Source: Polyangia bacterium
GTDB taxonomy: Bacteria; Myxococcota_A; Polyangia; Nannocystales; Nannocystaceae
Length of the DNA: 42,819 nucleotides
Assembly: GCA_030430565.1 (NCBI GenBank)
Contig: JAUIKS010000008.1
Span: forward strand, 303,225 to 346,043
Direction of reading: 5' to 3'
Part shown: one piece after another, positions 11,964-39,489 of the stretch
How positions within the stretch are numbered: position 1 is the stretch's first letter
Layout: each line of letters opens with the position of its first letter
Position numbers and translations under genes: made by a program
The notes under the pieces: model-generated
Database searches by the model: none
Told to the model about the DNA's origin: nothing
What the model saw: only the letters and a program-made list of their open reading frames with translations

Positions 11964-12833
11964 CTACATCTCGGGGTCGATCAGGACCGTGAGCGAGGTC
12001 CCCGGCAGCGCGCCGAGGGTGTATGTCATGAAGTTCAGATCGGGGTGGGTCACCGTGTACTCCGAGGCGGCCGGCGCGCCCGGGACGATGAACAGGCCCG
12101 TCGACGAGGTCTCGGTGTTGACGGCCCCCATCGTCTGGAAGATCCCGTCCTCGTGGAAATCATCGCCGTAGTACACGGTCGGGCAGCCGCCGCAGCTGAT
12201 GCTCGCGCCGGGCACACCGCCCTTGTTCATGTCGCGGATGTAGCCGATCACGGCGCCGTCGGTCGCGATCGTCGCGGTCGAGCCGGCCATCATGAGCCCC
12301 ATGTCGGTGCCGGCCACCGTGTCGACGTCGAGCACCCACGCCTTGTGCTCGGGGAGCTCGTCCCCGTCCGCCAGGTCCATGTAGCGGATCGGGCGCATGC
12401 CCGAGGCCGAGGGTGAAACGATCGTCCCGGAGTTGTCGCAGTCGTGGACCAGGATCACGAGCCCGAACTCCGGCTTGCTCATGATCCCGGTGACCATGAA
12501 CTTCCCGTCAGGCATGAGCTCGGTGCTCGCGAGCGCCACCGCCTCGCCCTGCTCCATCGTCGGCACTGGATCGACGATGCTGACGCACACGCTGCCCGCG
12601 GCCGACATGTACGGCTCGCCGGTGAACAGGTCGACCGCGGTGCCGGAGATCGCGAAGCCTGGGCCCATCATCCCGGTCTCGCCCATGGTCATGGGGCCTG
12701 CGCTGGGGTCGGTCTCGGCCGTGGTCTCGCCGGTCGCGTCGGTGTCCTCGCCGCTGTCGCCGCACGCGCCCGCGCTCGCCAAGAGCAAGAACGCCGCGGC
12801 GCTGGTGATCGCTACTAGTCTGCTGCGTTTCAT
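11964..12833 (-). CDS. Hypothetical secreted lipoprotein
   Basis: 289 aa with an ATG start. N-terminus MKRSRLVAITSAAAFLLLASAGACGDSGED is a signal peptide plus lipobox Cys followed by an acidic low-complexity tether. Convergent with the LRR gene, 4 nt gap. Confidence 0.6.
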   Translation of the reverse strand: MKRSRLVAITSAAAFLLLASAGACGDSGEDTDATGETTAETDPSAGPMTMGETGMMGPGFAISGTAVDLFTGEPYMSAAGSVCVSIVDPVPTMEQGEAVALASTELMPDGKFMVTGIMSKPEFGLVILVHDCDNSGTIVSPSASGMRPIRYMDLADGDELPEHKAWVLDVDTVAGTDMGLMMAGSTATIATDGAVIGYIRDMNKGGVPGASISCGGCPTVYYGDDFHEDGIFQTMGAVNTETSSTGLFIVPGAPAASEYTVTHPDLNFMTYTLGALPGTSLTVLIDPEM

Positions 12834-22570: not shown

Positions 22571-24412
22571 CTACGCGCCCGCCTCGACCGCGCGGAGGGC
22601 CACGATCGCGCGCCGCAGGTCCTTGCGCAGGCAGCCCAGGCAGTCACGCCGCTTAAACGCCTTGCCGCACTCGTCCCGCGGGAGCTTGCTCATCCGGCGC
22701 AGCAGCGGGAGCACGCGCGGGTCGCCGAGCTGCTCCAGCTCGAGCAGCACCGGCTGCTTCTCTTTGCAGGTGCTCGCGCGCTCGATCGCCGCGGCCAGGC
22801 GCGCGTAGTCGGGGACCTCGTCGGCGGGCTCGTGCTCGAGGATCGTCTCGATCGACCTCTTGAGCCGGTTGGGTCGCTTGCCGTCGATCACGACCGCGAT
22901 GGGCTCCTCGAGCTCGGCCGGCGCCGACGCGCCGCGTGATCCCGCGCCTGCCCGCTTCGACACCTTCGCTGTCGCGGCCGCGGGCTCCTCCACGTCTTCG
23001 TCGTCGCGCGACGACGCGCCGTCGTCGGACGATCCCGTCAGCGCGACGACCAACCCACCCACCAGCGCGACCAGCAGCAGCGCCGCGCCAGCGACGATCG
23101 CGAGGTTGCGCCCCGGCGCGCGGGACCGAAGCTCCCCCCGCGCCCCCGCGAGGATGCCGAGCGGGCTGTTCGGGCTCCGCGACGCCGACAGCAGCCGCTC
23201 CGCGGCGGCGGTCGGGGACTCGGCGATCTGCGTGACCGCGACCGGCTCGCGCGCTCCGCTCGGGGGCCCCGCCGGGAACACGACGCCGGCCGCGACGCTC
23301 AGCTCCTTGGGCGCGCCGTCGGCGAGCGCGTTGAGCCGCGTGCAGACCTCGACCGCGTCGCGCGCGCGCGCGGAGGCGTTTCGCGCCAACAGGCGCTCGA
23401 CCAGCTCGACCAGCTCCGCCGGCAGCTCCACGCCCTCGACGCCCGAGAGCGAGGGTGCCTCCTGGGTCAGCTGCATCTCGACGAGCGACTCCAGATCGTC
23501 GGCCGGCCACAGCCGCCGCCCCGAGATGCACTCCCACAGCAGCACGCCGAGCGAGTAGAGGTCGGCGCGCGCGTCGACGACCCCGCCGATCGCCTGCTCC
23601 GGCGCCATGTAGCCGGGCGTGCCGAGCACGACGCCGACGCGCGTGAGGACCGCGCCGTCGTCCGCGACCGGCGAATTCTCGGTGATGCGGGCCAGCCCGA
23701 AGTCGAGCACCCGCGCGAACGCGCTGCCGTCGGCCTGGCGCTCGATGATCAAGTTGTCCGGCTTGAGGTCGCGATGGATGATCCCCAGGCCGTGCGCCAT
23801 GGCGAGCGCGTCGGCGATCTGCCCGCCGAGCCGACACGCGAGCCCCCACGGCAGCGGCCCGCGGGCGAGGATCGCCTCGAGGCTCTGACCGTGCACCAGC
23901 GTGCTCACGAGGAAGGCGCCGCCCTCGAGGAGCTCCCCGTAGTCCATCGCGCCGACGATGTGCGGGTGGTCGAGCAGCGCCGTCACCTTCGCCTCGCGTT
24001 CGAAGCGCGCGAGCACCTCGTCGTGGTTGAGCGTCTCGGCGCGGATGAGCTTGACCGCGACCTGCTTGTTGAGCTTGAGGTGCTCGGCGCGGTACACCGA
24101 GCCCATGCCGCCCTCGCCGATCTTGTCGAGGATCCGGTAGCGCCCCTCGATGACGCGCCCGATCATCGGGTCGATCGCCACGCCGAGCTCCGCCTCGTCC
24201 GCGACGACCTGCGCGGTCAGGCCCGCGGGCCCCTGCTCCTCGCTCGGCGCCGCCGCGGGCGCGGGGGCCGGCTCGATCGGGCGCGGCGTGACGAACATGG
24301 TGCCGCCCTTGGCGAGCGCGCTCCAGTCGGGCGCCCCGGGCTGCGCCCCCTGCAGCTGGGCCTCTGAGCCGATGCCGGAGAACGCTCCGCCCTGCGAGTC
24401 ATCGTTCGTCAT
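22571..24412 (-). CDS. Eukaryotic-like Ser/Thr protein kinase with single TM segment and C-terminal extracytoplasmic region
   Basis: ATG at 24410-24412 (MTNDDS); the ORF track starts 20 codons earlier. Hanks-type motifs: GEGGMGSVYRA (Gly loop), VAVK, HRDLKPDN (catalytic loop), DFG, GTPGYMAPE. TM helix LAIVAGAALLLVALVGGLVVAL. Confidence 0.85.
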   Translation of the reverse strand: MTNDDSQGGAFSGIGSEAQLQGAQPGAPDWSALAKGGTMFVTPRPIEPAPAPAAAPSEEQGPAGLTAQVVADEAELGVAIDPMIGRVIEGRYRILDKIGEGGMGSVYRAEHLKLNKQVAVKLIRAETLNHDEVLARFEREAKVTALLDHPHIVGAMDYGELLEGGAFLVSTLVHGQSLEAILARGPLPWGLACRLGGQIADALAMAHGLGIIHRDLKPDNLIIERQADGSAFARVLDFGLARITENSPVADDGAVLTRVGVVLGTPGYMAPEQAIGGVVDARADLYSLGVLLWECISGRRLWPADDLESLVEMQLTQEAPSLSGVEGVELPAELVELVERLLARNASARARDAVEVCTRLNALADGAPKELSVAAGVVFPAGPPSGAREPVAVTQIAESPTAAAERLLSASRSPNSPLGILAGARGELRSRAPGRNLAIVAGAALLLVALVGGLVVALTGSSDDGASSRDDEDVEEPAAATAKVSKRAGAGSRGASAPAELEEPIAVVIDGKRPNRLKRSIETILEHEPADEVPDYARLAAAIERASTCKEKQPVLLELEQLGDPRVLPLLRRMSKLPRDECGKAFKRRDCLGCLRKDLRRAIVALRAVEAGA

Positions 24413-24735
24413 CAAGCGCCACTCACCGTCGCCAGCCGGTCGCGCGCGCGAGCGCGGCGCCGATCCACCCACGACGAGAGTACCGCGTGCGCGCGCTCGG
24501 GGACTAGCCCCATCGCGCGCCGTGGTTCTGCCGCGAACGACGAGCGCACGAGGCTACAGCAGATGCTCGCGCGTCGCTTCGCGTTCGCCTCGTTCGCGCT
24601 TCGGTCCGCTCGCTGCATTTCCGCCCCCTTGCCGATCGCGCGTCGAGACGTGATGAGCGATGGGGACTCGCGCGAACGGACCGACGACGACCGGGCCGCG
24701 GGCCCGCGCGCCATCGCGCCGAGCGGGCGCGCGAC

Positions 24736-26592
24736 TCAGGCGCGCTCCTGCGTGATCCCGTAGCGCTTGAGCTTGTTCAAGAATGTCCGCAGGGGCATCT
24801 TGATCAGCCGGGCCGCCTGGGTCTTGTTCCCGCCGGAGGCGCGCATCGCCTCGGAGATCCGGCGCACCTCGAGCTCGCGGATCTCCTCCTGCAGCGGGCG
24901 GAAGCGGGGCGTGTCGTCCTCCCCGGGCGCCGGGCGCTGCGGAGCCGCGCCCGCGCCCGCGCGCGGCGGCGGCTCCTGCTCCAGCAGATCTCCGACGTGC
25001 CAGGACTCGAGCGTGCTCCCCGAGATCACGCTCGCGGCGTACTCCATCGCGTTGCGGAGCTGCCGGATGTTCCCGGGCCACGAGCGCGCCGCGAGGTCCC
25101 GCATCGCGTCGCCCGTGATCACGAGCGGCGCGCGGCCCTGGCGGACGCAGGCGTCCGTCAAGAACTTGCGCGCGAGGATGGCGAGCTCGCGCGGCCGGTC
25201 GCGCAGCGGCGGCAGCCACAGCCGCGCACCACCTAGCCGAAAGAACAGGTCTTCCCGGAACCGCCCCTCGCTGACCGCGTCCTTGAGCTCGCGGTGGGTC
25301 GCCGCGATCATCCGGACGTCGATCGAGATCTCGGAGATGCCGCCGACCCGCATGATCCGCTGGCTCTCGAGCGCGCGCAGCAGCTTGGCCTGCGCGACCA
25401 GGCTCAGCTCCGCGACCTCGTCGAGGAACACCGAGCCGCCGTTCGCCGCCTCGAGCAGGCCGACCTTGGTCGCGTGCGCGCCCGTGAAGGCGCCCCGCTC
25501 GTGGCCGAACAGCTCGCTCTCGATCAGGCTGTCTTGCAGCGCCGCGCAGTTGAGCGCGACGAGCCGCCCGCTCGCCCGCGGCGACCAGTGGTGTATCGCG
25601 CGCGCGACCAGCTCTTTGCCGGTCCCGGTCTCGCCGCACACGAGCACCGGGATGTCCGAGGCCGCGACTCGCTCGGCGATCCCGTACACGCGCAGCGTCG
25701 CCAGGTCCGCCGCGACGATCTCGACGTCACCCGTGTGGATCATGCGATAGGCGTCCGTCGCGTCGATGACCAGGCCGGGCGCCGCCGTGTCGACGGCCGC
25801 GCGCGCGGCCGCGATCATCGTCTCGATCTGCGCGCCGTCGCGGGGACAGCACGCGAAGCCCATCCGGCACCCCGGGTCGACCCGCGAGAGCGCCGCGTGC
25901 ACCCCCCGCGCCAGCTCGCGCCCGTCCTCGGCGTCCGCCTCCGGCATCAGCAGCAGCAGCACGCCGTCGGGCTCGGGGGCCGCCGTGTCGATCGCCCGCA
26001 GCTGCTTCATCAGCACCGGCTCGATCGCGCGGTGATCCGCGGCGGGCAGACGCACCGCGACGACGCAGAGGTCGCGCCCGAAGTTGACCGCGCGCAGTAG
26101 CTCCTCGCCGAGCCGCGCGCGGAAGTCCGCCTTGTCGATCATGCGACGCCCGCCGCGCGCCCGCCCGCGCGCGTGGTAGATGATCGTCGTGTTCGCGATC
26201 GAGATGACGTCGCCCGGGTGGAGCAGGTGCGGCGCGTCGATCCGCTGGTCGTTGACCGCGGTGCCGTTCTGGCTGCCGAGGTCGAAGATCGTCGCGCGGC
26301 CGTCCTCGATCACGAGCTGCGCGTGCCGCCGCGACGCGAGGTAGTCGACGATCTGCAGGCCGACCTCGACCGCGCGGCCGATCAACACGACGCCGGCGCG
26401 CGGGAGCGTGAAGACGAAGGCCGAGTCTCGCTGCAGCACCATCAGGTAGCCCGGCGCGTCAGCCTGCCCGTCGGCCTGCTCGTCCGCGCTCGACGAGCTC
26501 GGCGCCGAGAGGGTGTTGTGCAGCGTCGGCGCCGACCACAGGTGCCCCTTCGGTTTGCGCGGGGCCGCGCCGCCGCTGTTGCTCTCGTCCAT
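24736..26592 (-). CDS. Sigma-54-dependent transcriptional activator (bacterial enhancer-binding protein) with N-terminal FHA domain and C-terminal Fis-type HTH
   Basis: 618 aa with an ATG start. FHA-like GRAVEVGLQIVDYLASRRHAQLVIEDGRATIFDLGSQNGTAVN. AAA+ sigma-54 interaction domain: Walker A GETGTGKE, ESELFGHERGAFTGA (GAFTGA motif), Walker B SVFLDEV, arginine finger region RQLRN. C-terminal HTH KTQAARLIKMPLRTFLNKLKRYG. Confidence 0.85.
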   Translation of the reverse strand: MDESNSGGAAPRKPKGHLWSAPTLHNTLSAPSSSSADEQADGQADAPGYLMVLQRDSAFVFTLPRAGVVLIGRAVEVGLQIVDYLASRRHAQLVIEDGRATIFDLGSQNGTAVNDQRIDAPHLLHPGDVISIANTTIIYHARGRARGGRRMIDKADFRARLGEELLRAVNFGRDLCVVAVRLPAADHRAIEPVLMKQLRAIDTAAPEPDGVLLLLMPEADAEDGRELARGVHAALSRVDPGCRMGFACCPRDGAQIETMIAAARAAVDTAAPGLVIDATDAYRMIHTGDVEIVAADLATLRVYGIAERVAASDIPVLVCGETGTGKELVARAIHHWSPRASGRLVALNCAALQDSLIESELFGHERGAFTGAHATKVGLLEAANGGSVFLDEVAELSLVAQAKLLRALESQRIMRVGGISEISIDVRMIAATHRELKDAVSEGRFREDLFFRLGGARLWLPPLRDRPRELAILARKFLTDACVRQGRAPLVITGDAMRDLAARSWPGNIRQLRNAMEYAASVISGSTLESWHVGDLLEQEPPPRAGAGAAPQRPAPGEDDTPRFRPLQEEIRELEVRRISEAMRASGGNKTQAARLIKMPLRTFLNKLKRYGITQERA

Positions 26593-26754
26593 CGCGCTCG
26601 ACTCGTCGCCCAGCAGGCCGTGCTAGGGCTCGAGAGTAGGTCAGTCGCGCCTCGGTGTGGGGCGTGGTTTGAAAACCCCGATCGCGCTGAGTCCAACAGA
26701 CAGCTCGCTCGCCGCACGTCACCGCGCCAGCCAGCCCGCGCGCGCGCGCTCGCG

Positions 26755-26806
26755 CCGTGCAACAGCTGCATGGCAGGATCGATTCGACCGTGCAGCAGCT
26801 GCACGG
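26755..26806. promoter_or_regulatory. Direct repeat of a 19-nt palindrome-containing element (CCGTGCA[A/G]CAGCTGCA[T/C]GG) in the divergent EBP / ECF-sigma promoter region
   Basis: Copies at 26755-26773 and 26788-26806, 33 nt start-to-start. The second copy contains a perfect 7-N-7 palindrome GTGCAGC-A-GCTGCAC. Confidence 0.45.
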
Positions 26807-26878
26807 TCGAGCCGCCGAGCCGCCGCCAATTCGCTGGCGCGACGCGGCTGGAACGGCGCCTGCACTACCGCGTCGCTG

Positions 26879-27568
26879 ATGCCTACCGCTCAGCCCAGCT
26901 CGCCGTACATGCCCCCGCCCGCCCGCCACGCGCGGGAGCGCGCGCGGAGGTACGGCGGCACGCGACGCGCTCCGCTCCGACGACGCGCGCCCCCACGCAG
27001 TGAAGACGAGTGTCTCGCCGCCGCGCGCCGCGGCGACCGCGAGGCGCAGGGGCAGCTGTTTCGCCGGCACGCGCGCCGCGTCACGAGGACGATCCTGCGC
27101 GTCACCCGTGACGAGAGCGGCGTCGAGGACTTGGTGCACGAGGTGTTCATCCGCGCCTTCAACAGCGTCCGCCGGTTCCGCGGCGACGCCCGGATCGAGA
27201 CCTGGCTGCACGTCATCGCCGTCAACCTCGCGCGCACCTGGCTCGACCGCGAAGCGCGGAGGCGACGGCGCGACGCGTTCGCGGTCACGCGCGCGCACGA
27301 GGAGCCGCTCAGCCCCGATGAGCACGTCGAGCGCGCGCTCCACCGCGAGCGCCTGCACACCGTGATCGCGACGCTCCCGAAGATCTTTCGCGACGCCTTC
27401 ATCGCCCGCGCCGTCGACGGGCTCTCGCTGCGCGAGGCCTCGCGCCGGCTCGGCGTCGGCGTGAGCACGGTTTCGTTTCGCGCCCAGCGCGGTGAGCAGC
27501 TGGTCTGCGCGGCGCTCGGCCTGGAGTGGGTCTCGCCCAGGCGACGCCGCGCACAGCCGGCGACATAA
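26879..27568 (+). CDS. ECF (group IV) sigma-70 family RNA polymerase sigma factor
   Basis: Start taken at the internal ATG at 26879 (alternative ATG at 26909); the ORF track extends 74 codons upstream. Region 2 (VEDLVHEVFIRAFNSVRRFRGDARIETWLHVIAVNLARTWL) and region 4 HTH (DAFIARAVDGLSLREASRRLGVGVSTVSFRAQRGEQ). Confidence 0.75.
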   Translation: MPTAQPSSPYMPPPARHARERARRYGGTRRAPLRRRAPPRSEDECLAAARRGDREAQGQLFRRHARRVTRTILRVTRDESGVEDLVHEVFIRAFNSVRRFRGDARIETWLHVIAVNLARTWLDREARRRRRDAFAVTRAHEEPLSPDEHVERALHRERLHTVIATLPKIFRDAFIARAVDGLSLREASRRLGVGVSTVSFRAQRGEQLVCAALGLEWVSPRRRRAQPAT

Positions 27569-27676: not shown

Positions 27677-27816
27677 ACGCCGGAGGGACGGGCCGCGCGC
27701 GGTCCGTCCTGCTTACACGGCCCCGCGCTGACGCGAGACCGCGAGCTGCTCGGCAGACGAGCGCGGCGCCCAGCGCTATGCCCGCGAGATACAAGACGAT
27801 GATCACGATTAGCCGA

Positions 27817-29058
<1,242 letters not shown>

Positions 29059-29085: not shown

Positions 29086-29115
29086 ATGACCCCGAGGACC
29101 TTTCCTCGGGGTCAT
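29086..29115 (+). terminator. Strong stem-loop (13-bp perfect stem, 4-nt loop) downstream of the GD-repeat lipoprotein gene
   Basis: ATGACCCCGAGGA-CCTT-TCCTCGGGGTCAT, 28 nt after the stop at 29058. No downstream T tract, which is common in high-GC bacteria. Confidence 0.55.
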
Positions 29116-29167
29116 GTCGTTCGCGCCGCGCGTGAGGTGGTACTCTCGGGGCGCTCAGAGGTTGACC

Positions 29168-29689
29168 ATGTACGTCTGCGATCACTGTCAGCGCCACTAC
29201 CGGGCGCGCGAGCCCCACTGCCCGTTCTGCGGCCCGACGCCGCGCAGCGTCGCGGCGTCGACGCTGCTGACGCTCGGCCTCGGCCTCGCGCTCGGCGTAG
29301 CGACGACGAGCTGCGGGGACGACAAGACGAACGAGAGCGGGAACGAGAGCTCGCAGACCTCGACCGACGCGGACGACTCCACCACGACCTTCTACGCGGG
29401 CCCGGGCCCCAGCACGGAGCTCTCGAGCTTCGGGACCACCGCGGCCGAGACCACCGACGCGACCGCGGGCACGACCGGCACCGACCCGGGCACGGAGACC
29501 GATACAACCACCGGCGACAGCACGGGCCAGAGCACGACCGACGCGACCGAGGGCGACAGCAGCTCGAGCGCGTCGGACTCCGACGCGACGACAGAGGCGA
29601 CGACCGAGGCGACGACAGGCGCGACGACGGGCGACAGCTCGGGCTCCGGCGGGGACCTCGACGTCGACCCGCCGCGCGCAGACAAGTAG
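29168..29689 (+). CDS. Zinc-ribbon / single-pass membrane (or lipo-)protein with long Thr/Ser/Asp/Gly-rich extracytoplasmic tail
   Basis: Internal ATG at 29168 gives MYVCDHCQRHYRAREPHCPFCGP (CxxC-x10-CxxC zinc ribbon), then the hydrophobic AASTLLTLGLGLALGVATTSCGDD, then about 110 residues of low-complexity T/S/D/G. The ORF track starts 18 codons earlier, inside the terminator hairpin. Confidence 0.55.
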   Translation: MYVCDHCQRHYRAREPHCPFCGPTPRSVAASTLLTLGLGLALGVATTSCGDDKTNESGNESSQTSTDADDSTTTFYAGPGPSTELSSFGTTAAETTDATAGTTGTDPGTETDTTTGDSTGQSTTDATEGDSSSSASDSDATTEATTEATTGATTGDSSGSGGDLDVDPPRADK

Positions 29690-29725
29690 CGAAGTTTAGG
29701 CGCGCAGAGAGCTTCAGGTGACGCC

Positions 29726-31060
29726 GTGAGCCTTGAGGACACCCGCCGGCGCCTGCCGATCGTCGACTCGCTGCCGCGACCGAAGACGCGCTCGCTCCTG
29801 CCGGTCGCGCCGGGACAAGGTCCGCGCCCGCGGCTCGCGGTGTGGGAGTTCACGCTCGCCTGCGACCAGCGCTGCCTCCACTGCGGACCCCGTGCCGGGC
29901 GGGCGCGACGGGACGAGCTGAGCACCGAGGAGGCGCTCGCGCTCGTCCGCGAGCTCGCCGCCGCGGGCGTGGGCGAGGTCGCGCTGATCGGCGGCGAGGC
30001 GTACCTGCGAAACGACTTCATCCTGGTCATCCGCGCGATCCGTGAGACTGGGATGACGGCGACCATGGTCACCGGCGGCTACAACCTGACGCGCGCGCGC
30101 GCGGAGGCGGCGGTCGAGGCCGGGATCAGCAGCGTCAGCCTCTCGATTGATGGCCTCGAGGACAGCCACAACCGAGTCCGCGACACGCCCGACAGCTGGC
30201 GCCGCGCGTTCCGGGCGCTCCGCCTGCTGCGCGAGGCCGGCTCGCGGATCTCGGTCAACACGCAGCTCAACGTGTGGACGCGCCACGAGCTCCCCGCGCT
30301 GCTCGAGCTGATCGCCGCCGAGGGCGCGTGGGCGTGGCAGCTGCAGCCCACGGTCGCCCACGGCAACGCGGCCGATCACCCCGAGCTGCTGCTGCAGCCG
30401 TACATGTACCTGGAGCTCTTCGACGCCGTGGAGCGCGTGCTCACCCGCGCCGAGTCGCTCGGCGTGCGGGTCTCGCCCGGCAACAGCCTCGGGTACTTCG
30501 GTCCGCTCGAGCACCGCCTGCGGAGCAGACAGATGCGCCGCACGGGGCACTTCCGGGGCTGCGAGGCCGGGCGCTCGACGATCGGCATCGAGAGCAACGG
30601 GATGATCAAGAACTGCCCGAGCAACGGCGGCCCGACGAATATCGGCGGGAGCTGGCGCGAGCGCAGCCTCGAGGAGCTGTGGACAGAGACCCCGCAGCTC
30701 AGCTCGCTGCGGGCGCGGACGGTCGAGGACCTCTGGGGCTACTGCCGCGAGTGCTACTACGCCGACCTCTGCCTCGCCGGCTGCACCGCCGTCTCGGAGC
30801 CGCTGCTCGGTCGACCGGGCAACAACCCGTACTGCCACCATCGCGCGCTCGAGCTCGACAAGCTCGGTCTGCGGGAGCGCGTCGAGCTCGTGCGGCCGGC
30901 GACCGCGGAGGCCTTCGCTAGCGCGCTGTTCCGCGTGGTCCGTGAGCACAAAGACGCGGCGGCGCGCGAGCGCCACGGCGGCCCCGTCGCGATCGAGGAG
31001 CCCCGGACGTCGCGGCTCGGAGATTGGCGGGGGCCCGGCGCGCCCGTTCCGCAGAGGTGA
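29726..31060 (+). CDS. Radical SAM enzyme with C-terminal SPASM domain (peptide/protein-modifying maturase family)
   Basis: 444 aa with a GTG start at 29726 and GGTGA 5 nt upstream. CxxxCxxC radical-SAM cluster motif FTLACDQRCLHCG. GGEAYLRNDF (GGEP-like). SPASM Cys motifs CEAGRSTIGIESNGMIKNCP and WGYCRECYYADLCLAGCTA. Confidence 0.8.
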   Translation: MSLEDTRRRLPIVDSLPRPKTRSLLPVAPGQGPRPRLAVWEFTLACDQRCLHCGPRAGRARRDELSTEEALALVRELAAAGVGEVALIGGEAYLRNDFILVIRAIRETGMTATMVTGGYNLTRARAEAAVEAGISSVSLSIDGLEDSHNRVRDTPDSWRRAFRALRLLREAGSRISVNTQLNVWTRHELPALLELIAAEGAWAWQLQPTVAHGNAADHPELLLQPYMYLELFDAVERVLTRAESLGVRVSPGNSLGYFGPLEHRLRSRQMRRTGHFRGCEAGRSTIGIESNGMIKNCPSNGGPTNIGGSWRERSLEELWTETPQLSSLRARTVEDLWGYCRECYYADLCLAGCTAVSEPLLGRPGNNPYCHHRALELDKLGLRERVELVRPATAEAFASALFRVVREHKDAAARERHGGPVAIEEPRTSRLGDWRGPGAPVPQR

Positions 31061-38409: not shown

Positions 38410-38540
38410 AATGTTGCGGCGTACCCGAGCGCCCCGCGACGCCCGGCGTCCTCCCGCGCCCCAACGGGTCTCTGCGCGGTCGCACGCCGTCTGGCACGGG
38501 TTGTGCTTTGTACACTGAGCGTCACGGGAAAGGAGCCCAC

Positions 38541-39038
38541 GTGTACTTGGCCACACTGATTCACGCTGACTTGTGCGCGTCCGTAGGCTCGCCGCTGGTC
38601 GCAAACGCCTCGCTCGCGCTCGACCTCTCCACCGCGCTGTTCGGCGGCGCGCTCATCGGTCTGGCGTCCATGCTCGTCCTGCTGTTCTCCGGCCGCGTCG
38701 TCGGGATCAGCGGGGTCGTCGGCGGCCTCCTCCCGCCGCGCCCCGGGGACCTCGACTGGCGCGTCAGCTTCGTCGTGGGGCTGCTCGTCGGCGGGCTGGC
38801 GTTGAGCGTCATTCTGCCCGGGGCGCTCGACCTCTCCGCGCTGCCGCGCGGGCCGCTGGAGCTCGTGCTCGGCGGCGCGCTCGTCGGCGTCGGCACGCGG
38901 ATGGGCAACGGCTGCACCAGCGGTCACGGCGTGTGCGGGATCGGCCGCCTCTCGCGTCGCTCGATCCTCGCCACGATCACCTTCATCTCGTTCGCCGCGT
39001 TGACCGTCTTCCTCACCCGACATGTCTTCGGAGGCTAA
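38541..39038 (+). CDS. YeeE/YedE-family sulfur-compound transporter component (N-terminal half-type)
   Basis: GTG at 38541 preceded by AAAGGAG (38527-38533, 7-nt spacer); the ORF track starts 11 codons earlier. Multi-TM protein with the family signature GNGCTSGHGVCG. Confidence 0.65.
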   Translation: MYLATLIHADLCASVGSPLVANASLALDLSTALFGGALIGLASMLVLLFSGRVVGISGVVGGLLPPRPGDLDWRVSFVVGLLVGGLALSVILPGALDLSALPRGPLELVLGGALVGVGTRMGNGCTSGHGVCGIGRLSRRSILATITFISFAALTVFLTRHVFGG

Positions 39039-39042
39039 GCAG

Positions 39043-39489
39043 ATGCGCGGAGTCCGACAGGTCCACATCACCTTCCTCGCGGGCGTCCTGTTCGCGATCG
39101 GCCTCGGCGTCTCTGGCATGACGCGGCCGGACAAGGTGCTCAACTTCCTCGACTTCACCGGCGCGTGGGATCCCAGCCTCGCCGGCGTGATGATCGGCGC
39201 GATCCTGGTCTACGGGGTCGCCTTCCGCCGGATCACCGCGCGGATGCAGCGTCCGCTGCTGCTCGATCGATTCAGCCTGCCGACGCGCACGGACATCGAC
39301 GCGCGCCTGGTTCTCGGCTCGATCCTGTTCGGCGTCGGCTGGGGCCTGCTCGGGCTGTGCCCCGGCCCCGCGCTGACCTCGCTCGTCACCGGAGACCACG
39401 CGCTGCTGCTGTTCATCGCCAGCATGCTCGTCGGCATGTTCGGCTTCAACGTCATCCTGGCGCGCGCCCAGCAGCGACGCGGGAGCTGA
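39043..39489 (+). CDS. YeeE/YedE-family sulfur-compound transporter component (C-terminal half-type)
   Basis: ATG at 39043 preceded by GGAGG (39030-39034); the ORF track starts at an ATG at 39022, which overlaps the upstream gene. Multi-TM protein with the LLGLCPGP signature. Immediately follows the first half, as in split two-gene yeeE/yedE arrangements. Confidence 0.65.
   Translation: MRGVRQVHITFLAGVLFAIGLGVSGMTRPDKVLNFLDFTGAWDPSLAGVMIGAILVYGVAFRRITARMQRPLLLDRFSLPTRTDIDARLVLGSILFGVGWGLLGLCPGPALTSLVTGDHALLLFIASMLVGMFGFNVILARAQQRRGS

Follow-up and report, generated by a model that had tools for sequence, protein, structure and literature searches.

Two phased palindromes in a Myxococcota-like divergon form a predicted tandem enhancer of a sigma-54 promoter facing an ECF sigma factor gene

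Positions 26755-26806 of the window, the 42,819-nucleotide stretch of DNA analysed here, consist of two 19-nt palindromic copies whose starts lie 33 nt apart and which have 17 of 19 bases in common. The two palindromes probably constitute a tandem enhancer, or upstream activator sequence (UAS), of a sigma-54-dependent promoter transcribing an ECF sigma factor gene, bound by the enhancer-binding protein (EBP) encoded by the adjacent, divergent gene; we give this reading a probability of approximately 0.65. The adjacency and architecture of the locus make this EBP the most likely ligand of the sites, and we also infer the role of its neighbouring kinase, the position of the transcription start, and activation itself. 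Comparison across lineages provides stronger evidence for the pair than the chance statistics internal to the window.

Results

Organisation of the divergent locus

The presumed binder of both sites is encoded by the divergent EBP gene (24736-26592, - strand), the product of which combines FHA, Sigma54_activat (1.2e-62), AAA_lid_14 and HTH_8 (2.5e-10) domains, with a Walker A motif, GETGTGKE, and a GAFTGA loop visible in its translation. Directly downstream of it is a gene for a Ser/Thr protein kinase (22571-24472, - strand; Pkinase, 2.1e-40), the presumed upstream input via the FHA domain. The promoter is predicted to transcribe a + strand gene (26879-27568) for an ECF-type sigma factor with Sigma70_r2 and Sigma70_r4_2 domains, and this protein scored 87.8 bits against the TIGR02937 sigma70-ECF model, relative to a cutoff of 42.9.

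The start codon of the ECF gene is uncertain, with the only in-frame ATGs close upstream of the conserved region being those at 26879 and 26909, and homology to the ortholog in the more distant relative, L005, beginning at residue 45. In each of the three lineages compared, an ATG is found 14-15 nt past the -12 TGCA of the predicted sigma-54 promoter (L005:586-591), only approximately 4 nt beyond where transcription is predicted to start. In the window this ATG, at 26879, is in frame with the ECF open reading frame, whereas its L005 counterpart is out of frame and opens a separate frame of 55 codons. This early ATG could represent either a leaderless start or a small upstream open reading frame. 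A 20-nt direct duplication (gcgaccgagcgtcgcgcgtc, present twice) occupies L005:611-650, downstream of the predicted sigma-54 start site and ahead of the ECF start called in this ortholog.

The next + strand gene after that for the ECF sigma factor (27778-29058) encodes a lipoprotein-like product with a signal peptide and Cys, and no Pfam domain, which is not recognisable as an anti-sigma factor. Hence, with no obvious anti-sigma gene adjacent, control over the ECF sigma factor would act on the transcription of its gene. This lipoprotein-like gene carries a repeat at 28041-28252, where approximately 35 tandem CGGCGA units specify a long (Gly-Asp)n tract, ahead of which is a short (Thr-Glu)n tract at 27928-27956. 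Further downstream, an unannotated 211-aa open reading frame (29086-29721) precedes a + strand gene for a radical SAM/SPASM peptide maturase (29726-31060), for which the best NCBIfam matches, TIGR03913 (GDL-motif peptide-associated) and TIGR04103 (nif11-class), were both below cutoff. The region 29086-31060 may therefore be a RiPP-type cluster.

Two similar palindromes with a shared axis position

The preliminary description of this DNA had identified two 19-nt copies, 33 nt apart, between the EBP and ECF genes, and both the sequences and the coordinates proved correct. Copy 1 (CCGTGCAACAGCTGCATGG; 26755-26773, with no strand assigned) has its dyad at 26764 and is the predicted distal enhancer site, and copy 2 (CCGTGCAGCAGCTGCACGG; 26788-26806, again with no strand assigned) has its dyad at 26797 and is the predicted proximal site. 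Copy 2 had been characterised as a perfect 7-N-7 palindrome, and in fact the perfect 7-N5-7 symmetry extends to 9-N1-9, with the axis on A26797; in copy 1, six of the seven outer arm pairs match. The initial view that the copies are centred on CAGCTG was slightly off, as the dyad axis is at position 10 of the 19-mer, CAGCTG occupies positions 9-14, and this hexamer varies in relatives.

Searching the 42.8-kb window, which is 71.7% G+C, for the motif with up to three mismatches returned four hits, corresponding to the two copies on both strands, against an expectation of 0.33, and no further copy beyond the pair; none of 100 shuffled windows reached four hits. Perfect 7-N5-7 palindromes were nevertheless at chance level (15 in the window versus 13.3 simulated), and nine of 400 Markov simulations produced two like palindromes in tandem. 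Hence the pair is only moderately unusual within the window. It might then lack any regulatory role, having been duplicated by chance or belonging to a family of dispersed repetitive palindromic elements, given that single palindromes of this size are expected by chance in 72% G+C DNA and that roughly 2% of simulated windows contain a comparable pair. However, a dispersed element is not favoured by the lack of other copies in the window, and neither version of this explanation accounts for the arm-specific conservation and exact spacing in a lineage in which the surrounding non-coding sequence is only ~30-55% identical, making it extremely improbable.

Immediately before copy 1, at 26736-26754, is a nearly alternating sequence in which CG/GC steps are frequent (ccgcgcgcgcgcgctcgcg); it is only partly kept in L001 and L005.

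A predicted sigma-54 promoter at enhancer distance

Beginning 43 nt past copy 2 is a predicted sigma-54 (-24/-12) promoter, TGGAACGGCGCCTGCA (26849-26864, + strand), which was absent from the preliminary description and which faces the ECF sigma factor gene. Its GG (26850-51) and GC (26862-63) are separated by 12 nt, as in the consensus, and it is the sole match in the window to the search pattern TGGNACGNNNNYTGCW, with 0.03 matches expected. It also has the highest score (15.4 bits) among the ~85,600 window positions evaluated with a sigma-54 position weight matrix (PWM), an approximate consensus matrix.

The promoter GG follows the centres of the palindromes at distances of 53 and 86 nt. With a predicted start site near 26875, placed relative to the promoter by the usual convention, the centres would hence be at about -78 for copy 2 and -111 for copy 1. 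This placement would represent classic enhancer geometry, although copy 2 is closer to the promoter than many characterised enhancers, which counts against the enhancer reading.

Four features expected of a UAS can be recognised in the sequence of this locus. Firstly, both copies are dyad-symmetric, suiting a dimeric HTH protein. Secondly, the sites are followed by a predicted GG/GC promoter, that at 26849-26864, as expected for a promoter ~70-200 bp downstream. Thirdly, the adjacent divergent EBP gene encodes a candidate cognate activator with an AAA+ GAFTGA domain and an HTH. Fourthly, both the sites and the promoter are conserved in the orthologous regions of L001/L002 and L005, such that they are present in three lineages. 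No rpoN gene was found within the 42.8-kb window.

The orientation of the promoter distinguishes between the regulatory circuits originally envisaged. No sigma-54-like site facing the EBP gene was found in the intergenic region. Hence autoregulation of the EBP is unsupported, whereas cross-regulation between the sigma-54 and ECF circuits is favoured, in the form of the EBP acting through sigma-54 on the ECF gene that the promoter faces. A TTGGAC-N17-TTCAAA sequence (26691-26696 / 26668-26673, - strand) faces the EBP gene, and the block around it (~26633-26697) shows good conservation in L001. This sequence was not called by a consensus scan, and makes only a weak candidate for a sigma-70-type promoter of the EBP gene itself.

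A second strong sigma-54-like promoter, TGGCACGGGTTGTGCT, is present in the window at 38492-38507 (+ strand), scoring 15.0 bits with the same approximate matrix. It is located before, or inside the 5' end of, the genes for Sulf_transp (38412-39038) and DUF6691 (39004-39489), a sulphur-transport-like pair, and neither a CGTGCA-N5-TGCAyG site nor an EBP gene was identified alongside it.

Conservation of arms, phasing and promoter across lineages

The comparison encompassed three lineages: the window itself, L001/L002, which are very close to it, and L005. A further contig, L006, showed no difference from the window, as judged by eye, in the part of its DNA that was read, and was taken to be from the same organism. 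L001/L002 represent a metagenomic relative with an EBP 95% identical to that of the window; apart from this relative, EBP homologs were at most 49% identical. Looking up the exact EBP sequence returned no match, and a search with its N-terminal 290 aa returned no orthologs beyond P0001. Similarly, the only close homologs of the ECF sigma factor were P0121 and P0122. This Myxococcota-like lineage would appear, from these searches, to be rare and seldom sampled.

In L001/L002, copy 1 has a single change, the spacer between the copies is identical at 14 of 14 positions, copy 2 is kept, and the promoter is identical at 16 of 16 positions, with both substitutions and indels in the flanks of these kept elements. 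Copy 2 in this relative is CCGTGCAGCTGTTGCACGA, in which the arms stay and the centre is changed; counted against the window, 13 of 14 arm positions are identical in each of the two copies of L001.

The divergence of L005 is much greater, its ECF sigma factor being 61-64% identical to that of the window, and the divergent gene fragment matching the N-terminus of the EBP with 59% identity (E = 2e-27), such that the EBP ortholog holds the same divergent position. The two copies of the palindrome in L005, CCGTGCAACTGCTGCATGG and TCGTGCAGGATGTGCATGG, are again spaced by exactly 33 nt, and 26 of the 28 arm positions are identical to the window (14/14 in copy 1 and 12/14 in copy 2). The 14-nt spacer between the copies, by contrast, is 29% identical, within non-coding surroundings that are ~30-55% identical. 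Hence conservation in orthologous intergenic regions, which the preliminary description had named as a check on the sites, was borne out, with both sites, their 33-nt spacing and the promoter being kept in L001/L002 and L005.

Across the six instances of the site, columns C2-A7, T13-C15 and G18 are invariant, giving the consensus yCGTGCA-N5-TGCAyGG with a free centre; the central five nucleotides of copy 2 are GCAGC, GCTGT and GGATG in the different lineages. The conserved determinant is CGTGCA-N5-TGCAyG, rather than CAGCTG. Such a combination of conserved arms and a free centre is characteristic of DNA that a dimeric protein binds through contacts to two half-sites. The proposal that these are UAS sites for a dimeric regulator of the EBP type is strengthened both by the sigma-54 promoter at enhancer distance, and by the retention of arms and phasing in two other lineages, with the EBP as the probable ligand.

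Inverted arms may also be maintained for their ability to pair, with the repeats acting as two stem-loops or one long hairpin in + strand RNA, or as a DNA cruciform, instead of as protein sites. The + strand RNA folds at -43.9 kcal/mol (z = -4.6), and 97.6% of the + strand arm cells are standard pairs, with the deviations mostly G-U; all but one of the departures from perfect symmetry are G-T on the + strand, which an RNA hairpin could tolerate, with this bias not being significant. However, the strong predicted fold is a trivial consequence of there being two copies of a palindrome. No compensatory, two-sided changes were found, nor any match to an Rfam family, and an intrinsic terminator scan at 26755-26806 returned nothing, the sequence past copy 2 (TCGAGCCGCC) having no T run. 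Furthermore, the sites are upstream of the only predicted + strand promoter, and a 33-nt phasing conserved across a diverged spacer suits protein docking better than folding. The RNA structure, Rfam family and terminator readings are therefore unsupported, and it is very improbable that the repeats function as nucleic acid structures.

The predicted sigma-54 promoter is itself preserved in L005 (TGGTACGCGCTGTGCA, 15.1 bits), where it faces the ECF gene and matches the window at 10 of 16 positions, which include all nine of the bases fixed in the pattern (TGG, ACG, TGC). The TGG, ACG and TGCA of the promoter are kept in all three lineages, and in every one of the three orthologous intergenic regions this promoter outscores any other sigma-54-like site, always on the strand directed towards the ECF gene. 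The distance from the sites to the promoter is 12 nt longer in L005, roughly one helical turn.

This pattern of conservation also bears on whether the same stretch of DNA, TGGAAC...CGTC, is instead, or in addition, an ECF-type autoregulatory promoter (-35 GGAAC, 16 nt, -10 CGTC) modulated by the palindromes. ECF sigma factor genes are commonly autoregulated, and GGAAC-N16-CGTC is present at 26850-26874. Yet the pattern is no more frequent in the window than expected by chance (two instances versus 2.85 expected), and CGTC is replaced by CCGG or CGGG in L001, with GGTAC and CGCG being found in L005, whereas none of the three lineages has lost the TGG, ACG and TGCA of the sigma-54 promoter. Hence an ECF-type promoter was rejected as the primary reading, and we consider it distinctly improbable. 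As this sequence overlaps the sigma-54 promoter, the newly-made ECF sigma factor could nevertheless feed back on its own promoter.

FHA-EBP paralogs and wider motif searches

The FHA-EBP paralogs whose recognition helices are similar (P0004, P0002, P0027, P0012 and P0096) had no convincing tandem site and no ECF neighbour nearby, and the loci L003, L004 and L247-L250 had neither an ECF neighbour nor a comparable tandem site. Hence the specificity of the EBP for the motif is not corroborated by its paralogs, which speak neither for nor against the assignment of the sites to it. A single near-match, CGTGCCAGTGTTGCACG, was found in L249, downstream of its kinase gene and without a proper sigma-54 promoter. 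The association with a kinase is more general, as a Ser/Thr kinase gene is immediately adjacent in four of five paralogous FHA-EBP loci (L003, L247/L248, L249 and L250); the fifth, L004, ends 72 nt beyond the EBP gene, with no kinase within that stretch. In both L003 and L249 the kinase is a large Pkinase-nSTAND-FGE-sulfatase protein, and L003 contains a strong sigma-54 promoter, TGGCACGCTCCCTGCT, at 12043-12058, just past the kinase gene.

These paralogs are relevant to the possibility that the palindromes are operators for another dimeric transcription factor, encoded elsewhere and acting on sigma-70-type promoters of the EBP gene, the ECF gene, or both, with the sigma-54 promoter served by the EBP in another manner or from solution. 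Conserved arms with a free centre would suit any dimeric HTH protein, paralogous EBPs with similar recognition helices are not accompanied by the motif, and the weak TTGGAC-N17-TTCAAA facing the EBP gene is kept in L001. However, the consensus scan found no sigma-70-type promoter, and the ortholog contigs, which are short, share no gene for another regulator at this locus. Moreover, the EBP as the binding protein is the simplest way to account for the conserved co-occurrence, in one divergon, of the sites, a sigma-54 promoter at enhancer distance and an HTH-bearing EBP gene. We therefore regard a different factor as an unlikely ligand.

A scan of genome contigs for two CGTGCA-N5-TGCA elements separated by N{5,35} returned at least 120 matches, filled by 9-nt tandem repeats, (CGTGCAnnn)n. 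In a scan of metagenome contigs for tandem GTGCA-N5-TGCA at a fixed 33 nt, none of the listed matches that were sampled combined extended arms, high G+C and a downstream sigma-54 site. A chance find of the motif scan was an iteron-like array in a Deltaproteobacteria metagenome-assembled genome (L084:768-886; JAEUKK010000096.1), consisting of approximately seven 15-bp palindromes, GTGCAayGGTTGCAC, 17-23 nt apart. These have the GTGCA-N5-TGCAC frame in common with the window sites, with no evident relation to the locus.

Discussion

The tandem enhancer reading leads to a simple model of how the locus may operate. EBP dimers would bind each yCGTGCA-N5-TGCAyGG site via the C-terminal Fis-type HTH. 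The 33-bp spacing, approximately three helical turns, would place both dimers on one face of the DNA, where they could nucleate an active AAA+ hexamer. Through its GAFTGA loops and ATP hydrolysis, this hexamer would open the sigma-54 closed complex at 26849-26864. As input, the FHA domain would probably read phosphorylation carried out by the co-transcribed Ser/Thr kinase, with synthesis of the ECF sigma factor as the output.

Such a scheme can be extended to a four-tier relay, from Ser/Thr kinase to FHA-EBP, sigma-54 promoter and ECF sigma factor, in which a eukaryote-like kinase signal would govern an ECF regulon purely via sigma factor synthesis, an adjacent anti-sigma factor being absent. 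We propose this relay tentatively, at slightly less than even odds. Were it to operate, the tandem CGTGCA-N5-TGCAyG sites would, to our knowledge, be among the few defined DNA targets of FHA-type EBPs.

Both an enhancer next to the gene of its activator, and an ECF gene driven by sigma-54, as in the case of hrpL, are already established. What is new is a further instance of a well-known control element, found in a Myxococcota-like lineage that has rarely been sampled. The value of this locus is therefore as an annotation and an experimental entry point, rather than as a new principle. If confirmed, it would provide a compact, testable example of target choice by myxobacterial FHA-type EBPs, with a defined 19-bp site, a defined phasing and one target promoter, and sigma-54 would be the link from Ser/Thr kinase signalling to an ECF sigma regulon. 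A full genome could also be searched for further targets with the binding motif.

The nearest precedents for the locus are NtrC-glnAp2 and HrpRS-hrpL. The predicted arrangement is similar to that of NtrC at glnAp2 in Escherichia coli and Salmonella, where the enhancers are at -140 and -108, 32 bp apart (PMC5159524), and the NtrC site is TGCACC(A/T)4TGGTGCA (PMC4987338). In both cases two dyad-symmetric sites, approximately three helical turns apart, are upstream of a -24/-12 promoter, with the sites of the window at ~-111/-78 and spaced by 33 bp; the binding protein, presumed in the case of the window, is an AAA+ activator with a C-terminal Fis-type HTH; and the half-sites have the pentamer GTGCA/TGCAC in common. 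However, the order of the half-sites is reversed, and they are closer together, in the window (CGTGCA-N5-TGCACG, as opposed to TGCACC-N5-GGTGCA), the sites are ~30 bp nearer to the promoter than those at glnAp2, the activator has an FHA domain instead of a receiver domain, and the predicted target is a sigma factor gene, rather than one for nitrogen assimilation. These differences in site order and span and the lack of a receiver domain, together with an EBP score of 263 bits relative to the NtrC cutoff of 558.6, place the locus outside the NtrC-type enhancers.

A different likeness is that to hrpL of Pseudomonas syringae, which encodes an ECF-family sigma factor and has a sigma-54 promoter activated by HrpR/HrpS (PMC3105312, PMC5263251). 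In the window, an ECF gene is likewise preceded, at the sequence level, by a sigma-54 promoter, predicted to be activated by an EBP, such that the ECF sigma factor would be controlled via its own synthesis. HrpR and HrpS form a co-dependent pair of EBPs and are not known to have a sensory N-terminal domain, whereas the window has a single FHA-EBP linked to a Ser/Thr kinase. Furthermore, the matches of the window sigma factor are to generic ECF proteins, with none of the searches run detecting a specific similarity to HrpL, and the hrpL cascade belongs to Gammaproteobacteria, unlike the Myxococcota-like lineage of the window. Hence the parallel with hrpL is in the ECF gene being preceded by a sigma-54 promoter, and does not extend to paired EBPs or an HrpL-like sigma factor.

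A further parallel is with the FHA-domain EBPs of Myxococcus xanthus (Jelsbak, Givskov and Kaiser 2005, as cited in PMC12288465). The domain order of FHA, AAA+ sigma-54 activator and HTH is the same, as is the myxobacterial background. Relative to the FHA-EBP paralogs that were inspected, the window locus is unlike in having an ECF neighbour and the palindromes, and the closest full-length homologs of its EBP are no more than 49% identical. In comparison with these paralogous loci, the predicted sites and their target promoter appear to be specific to this rare lineage.
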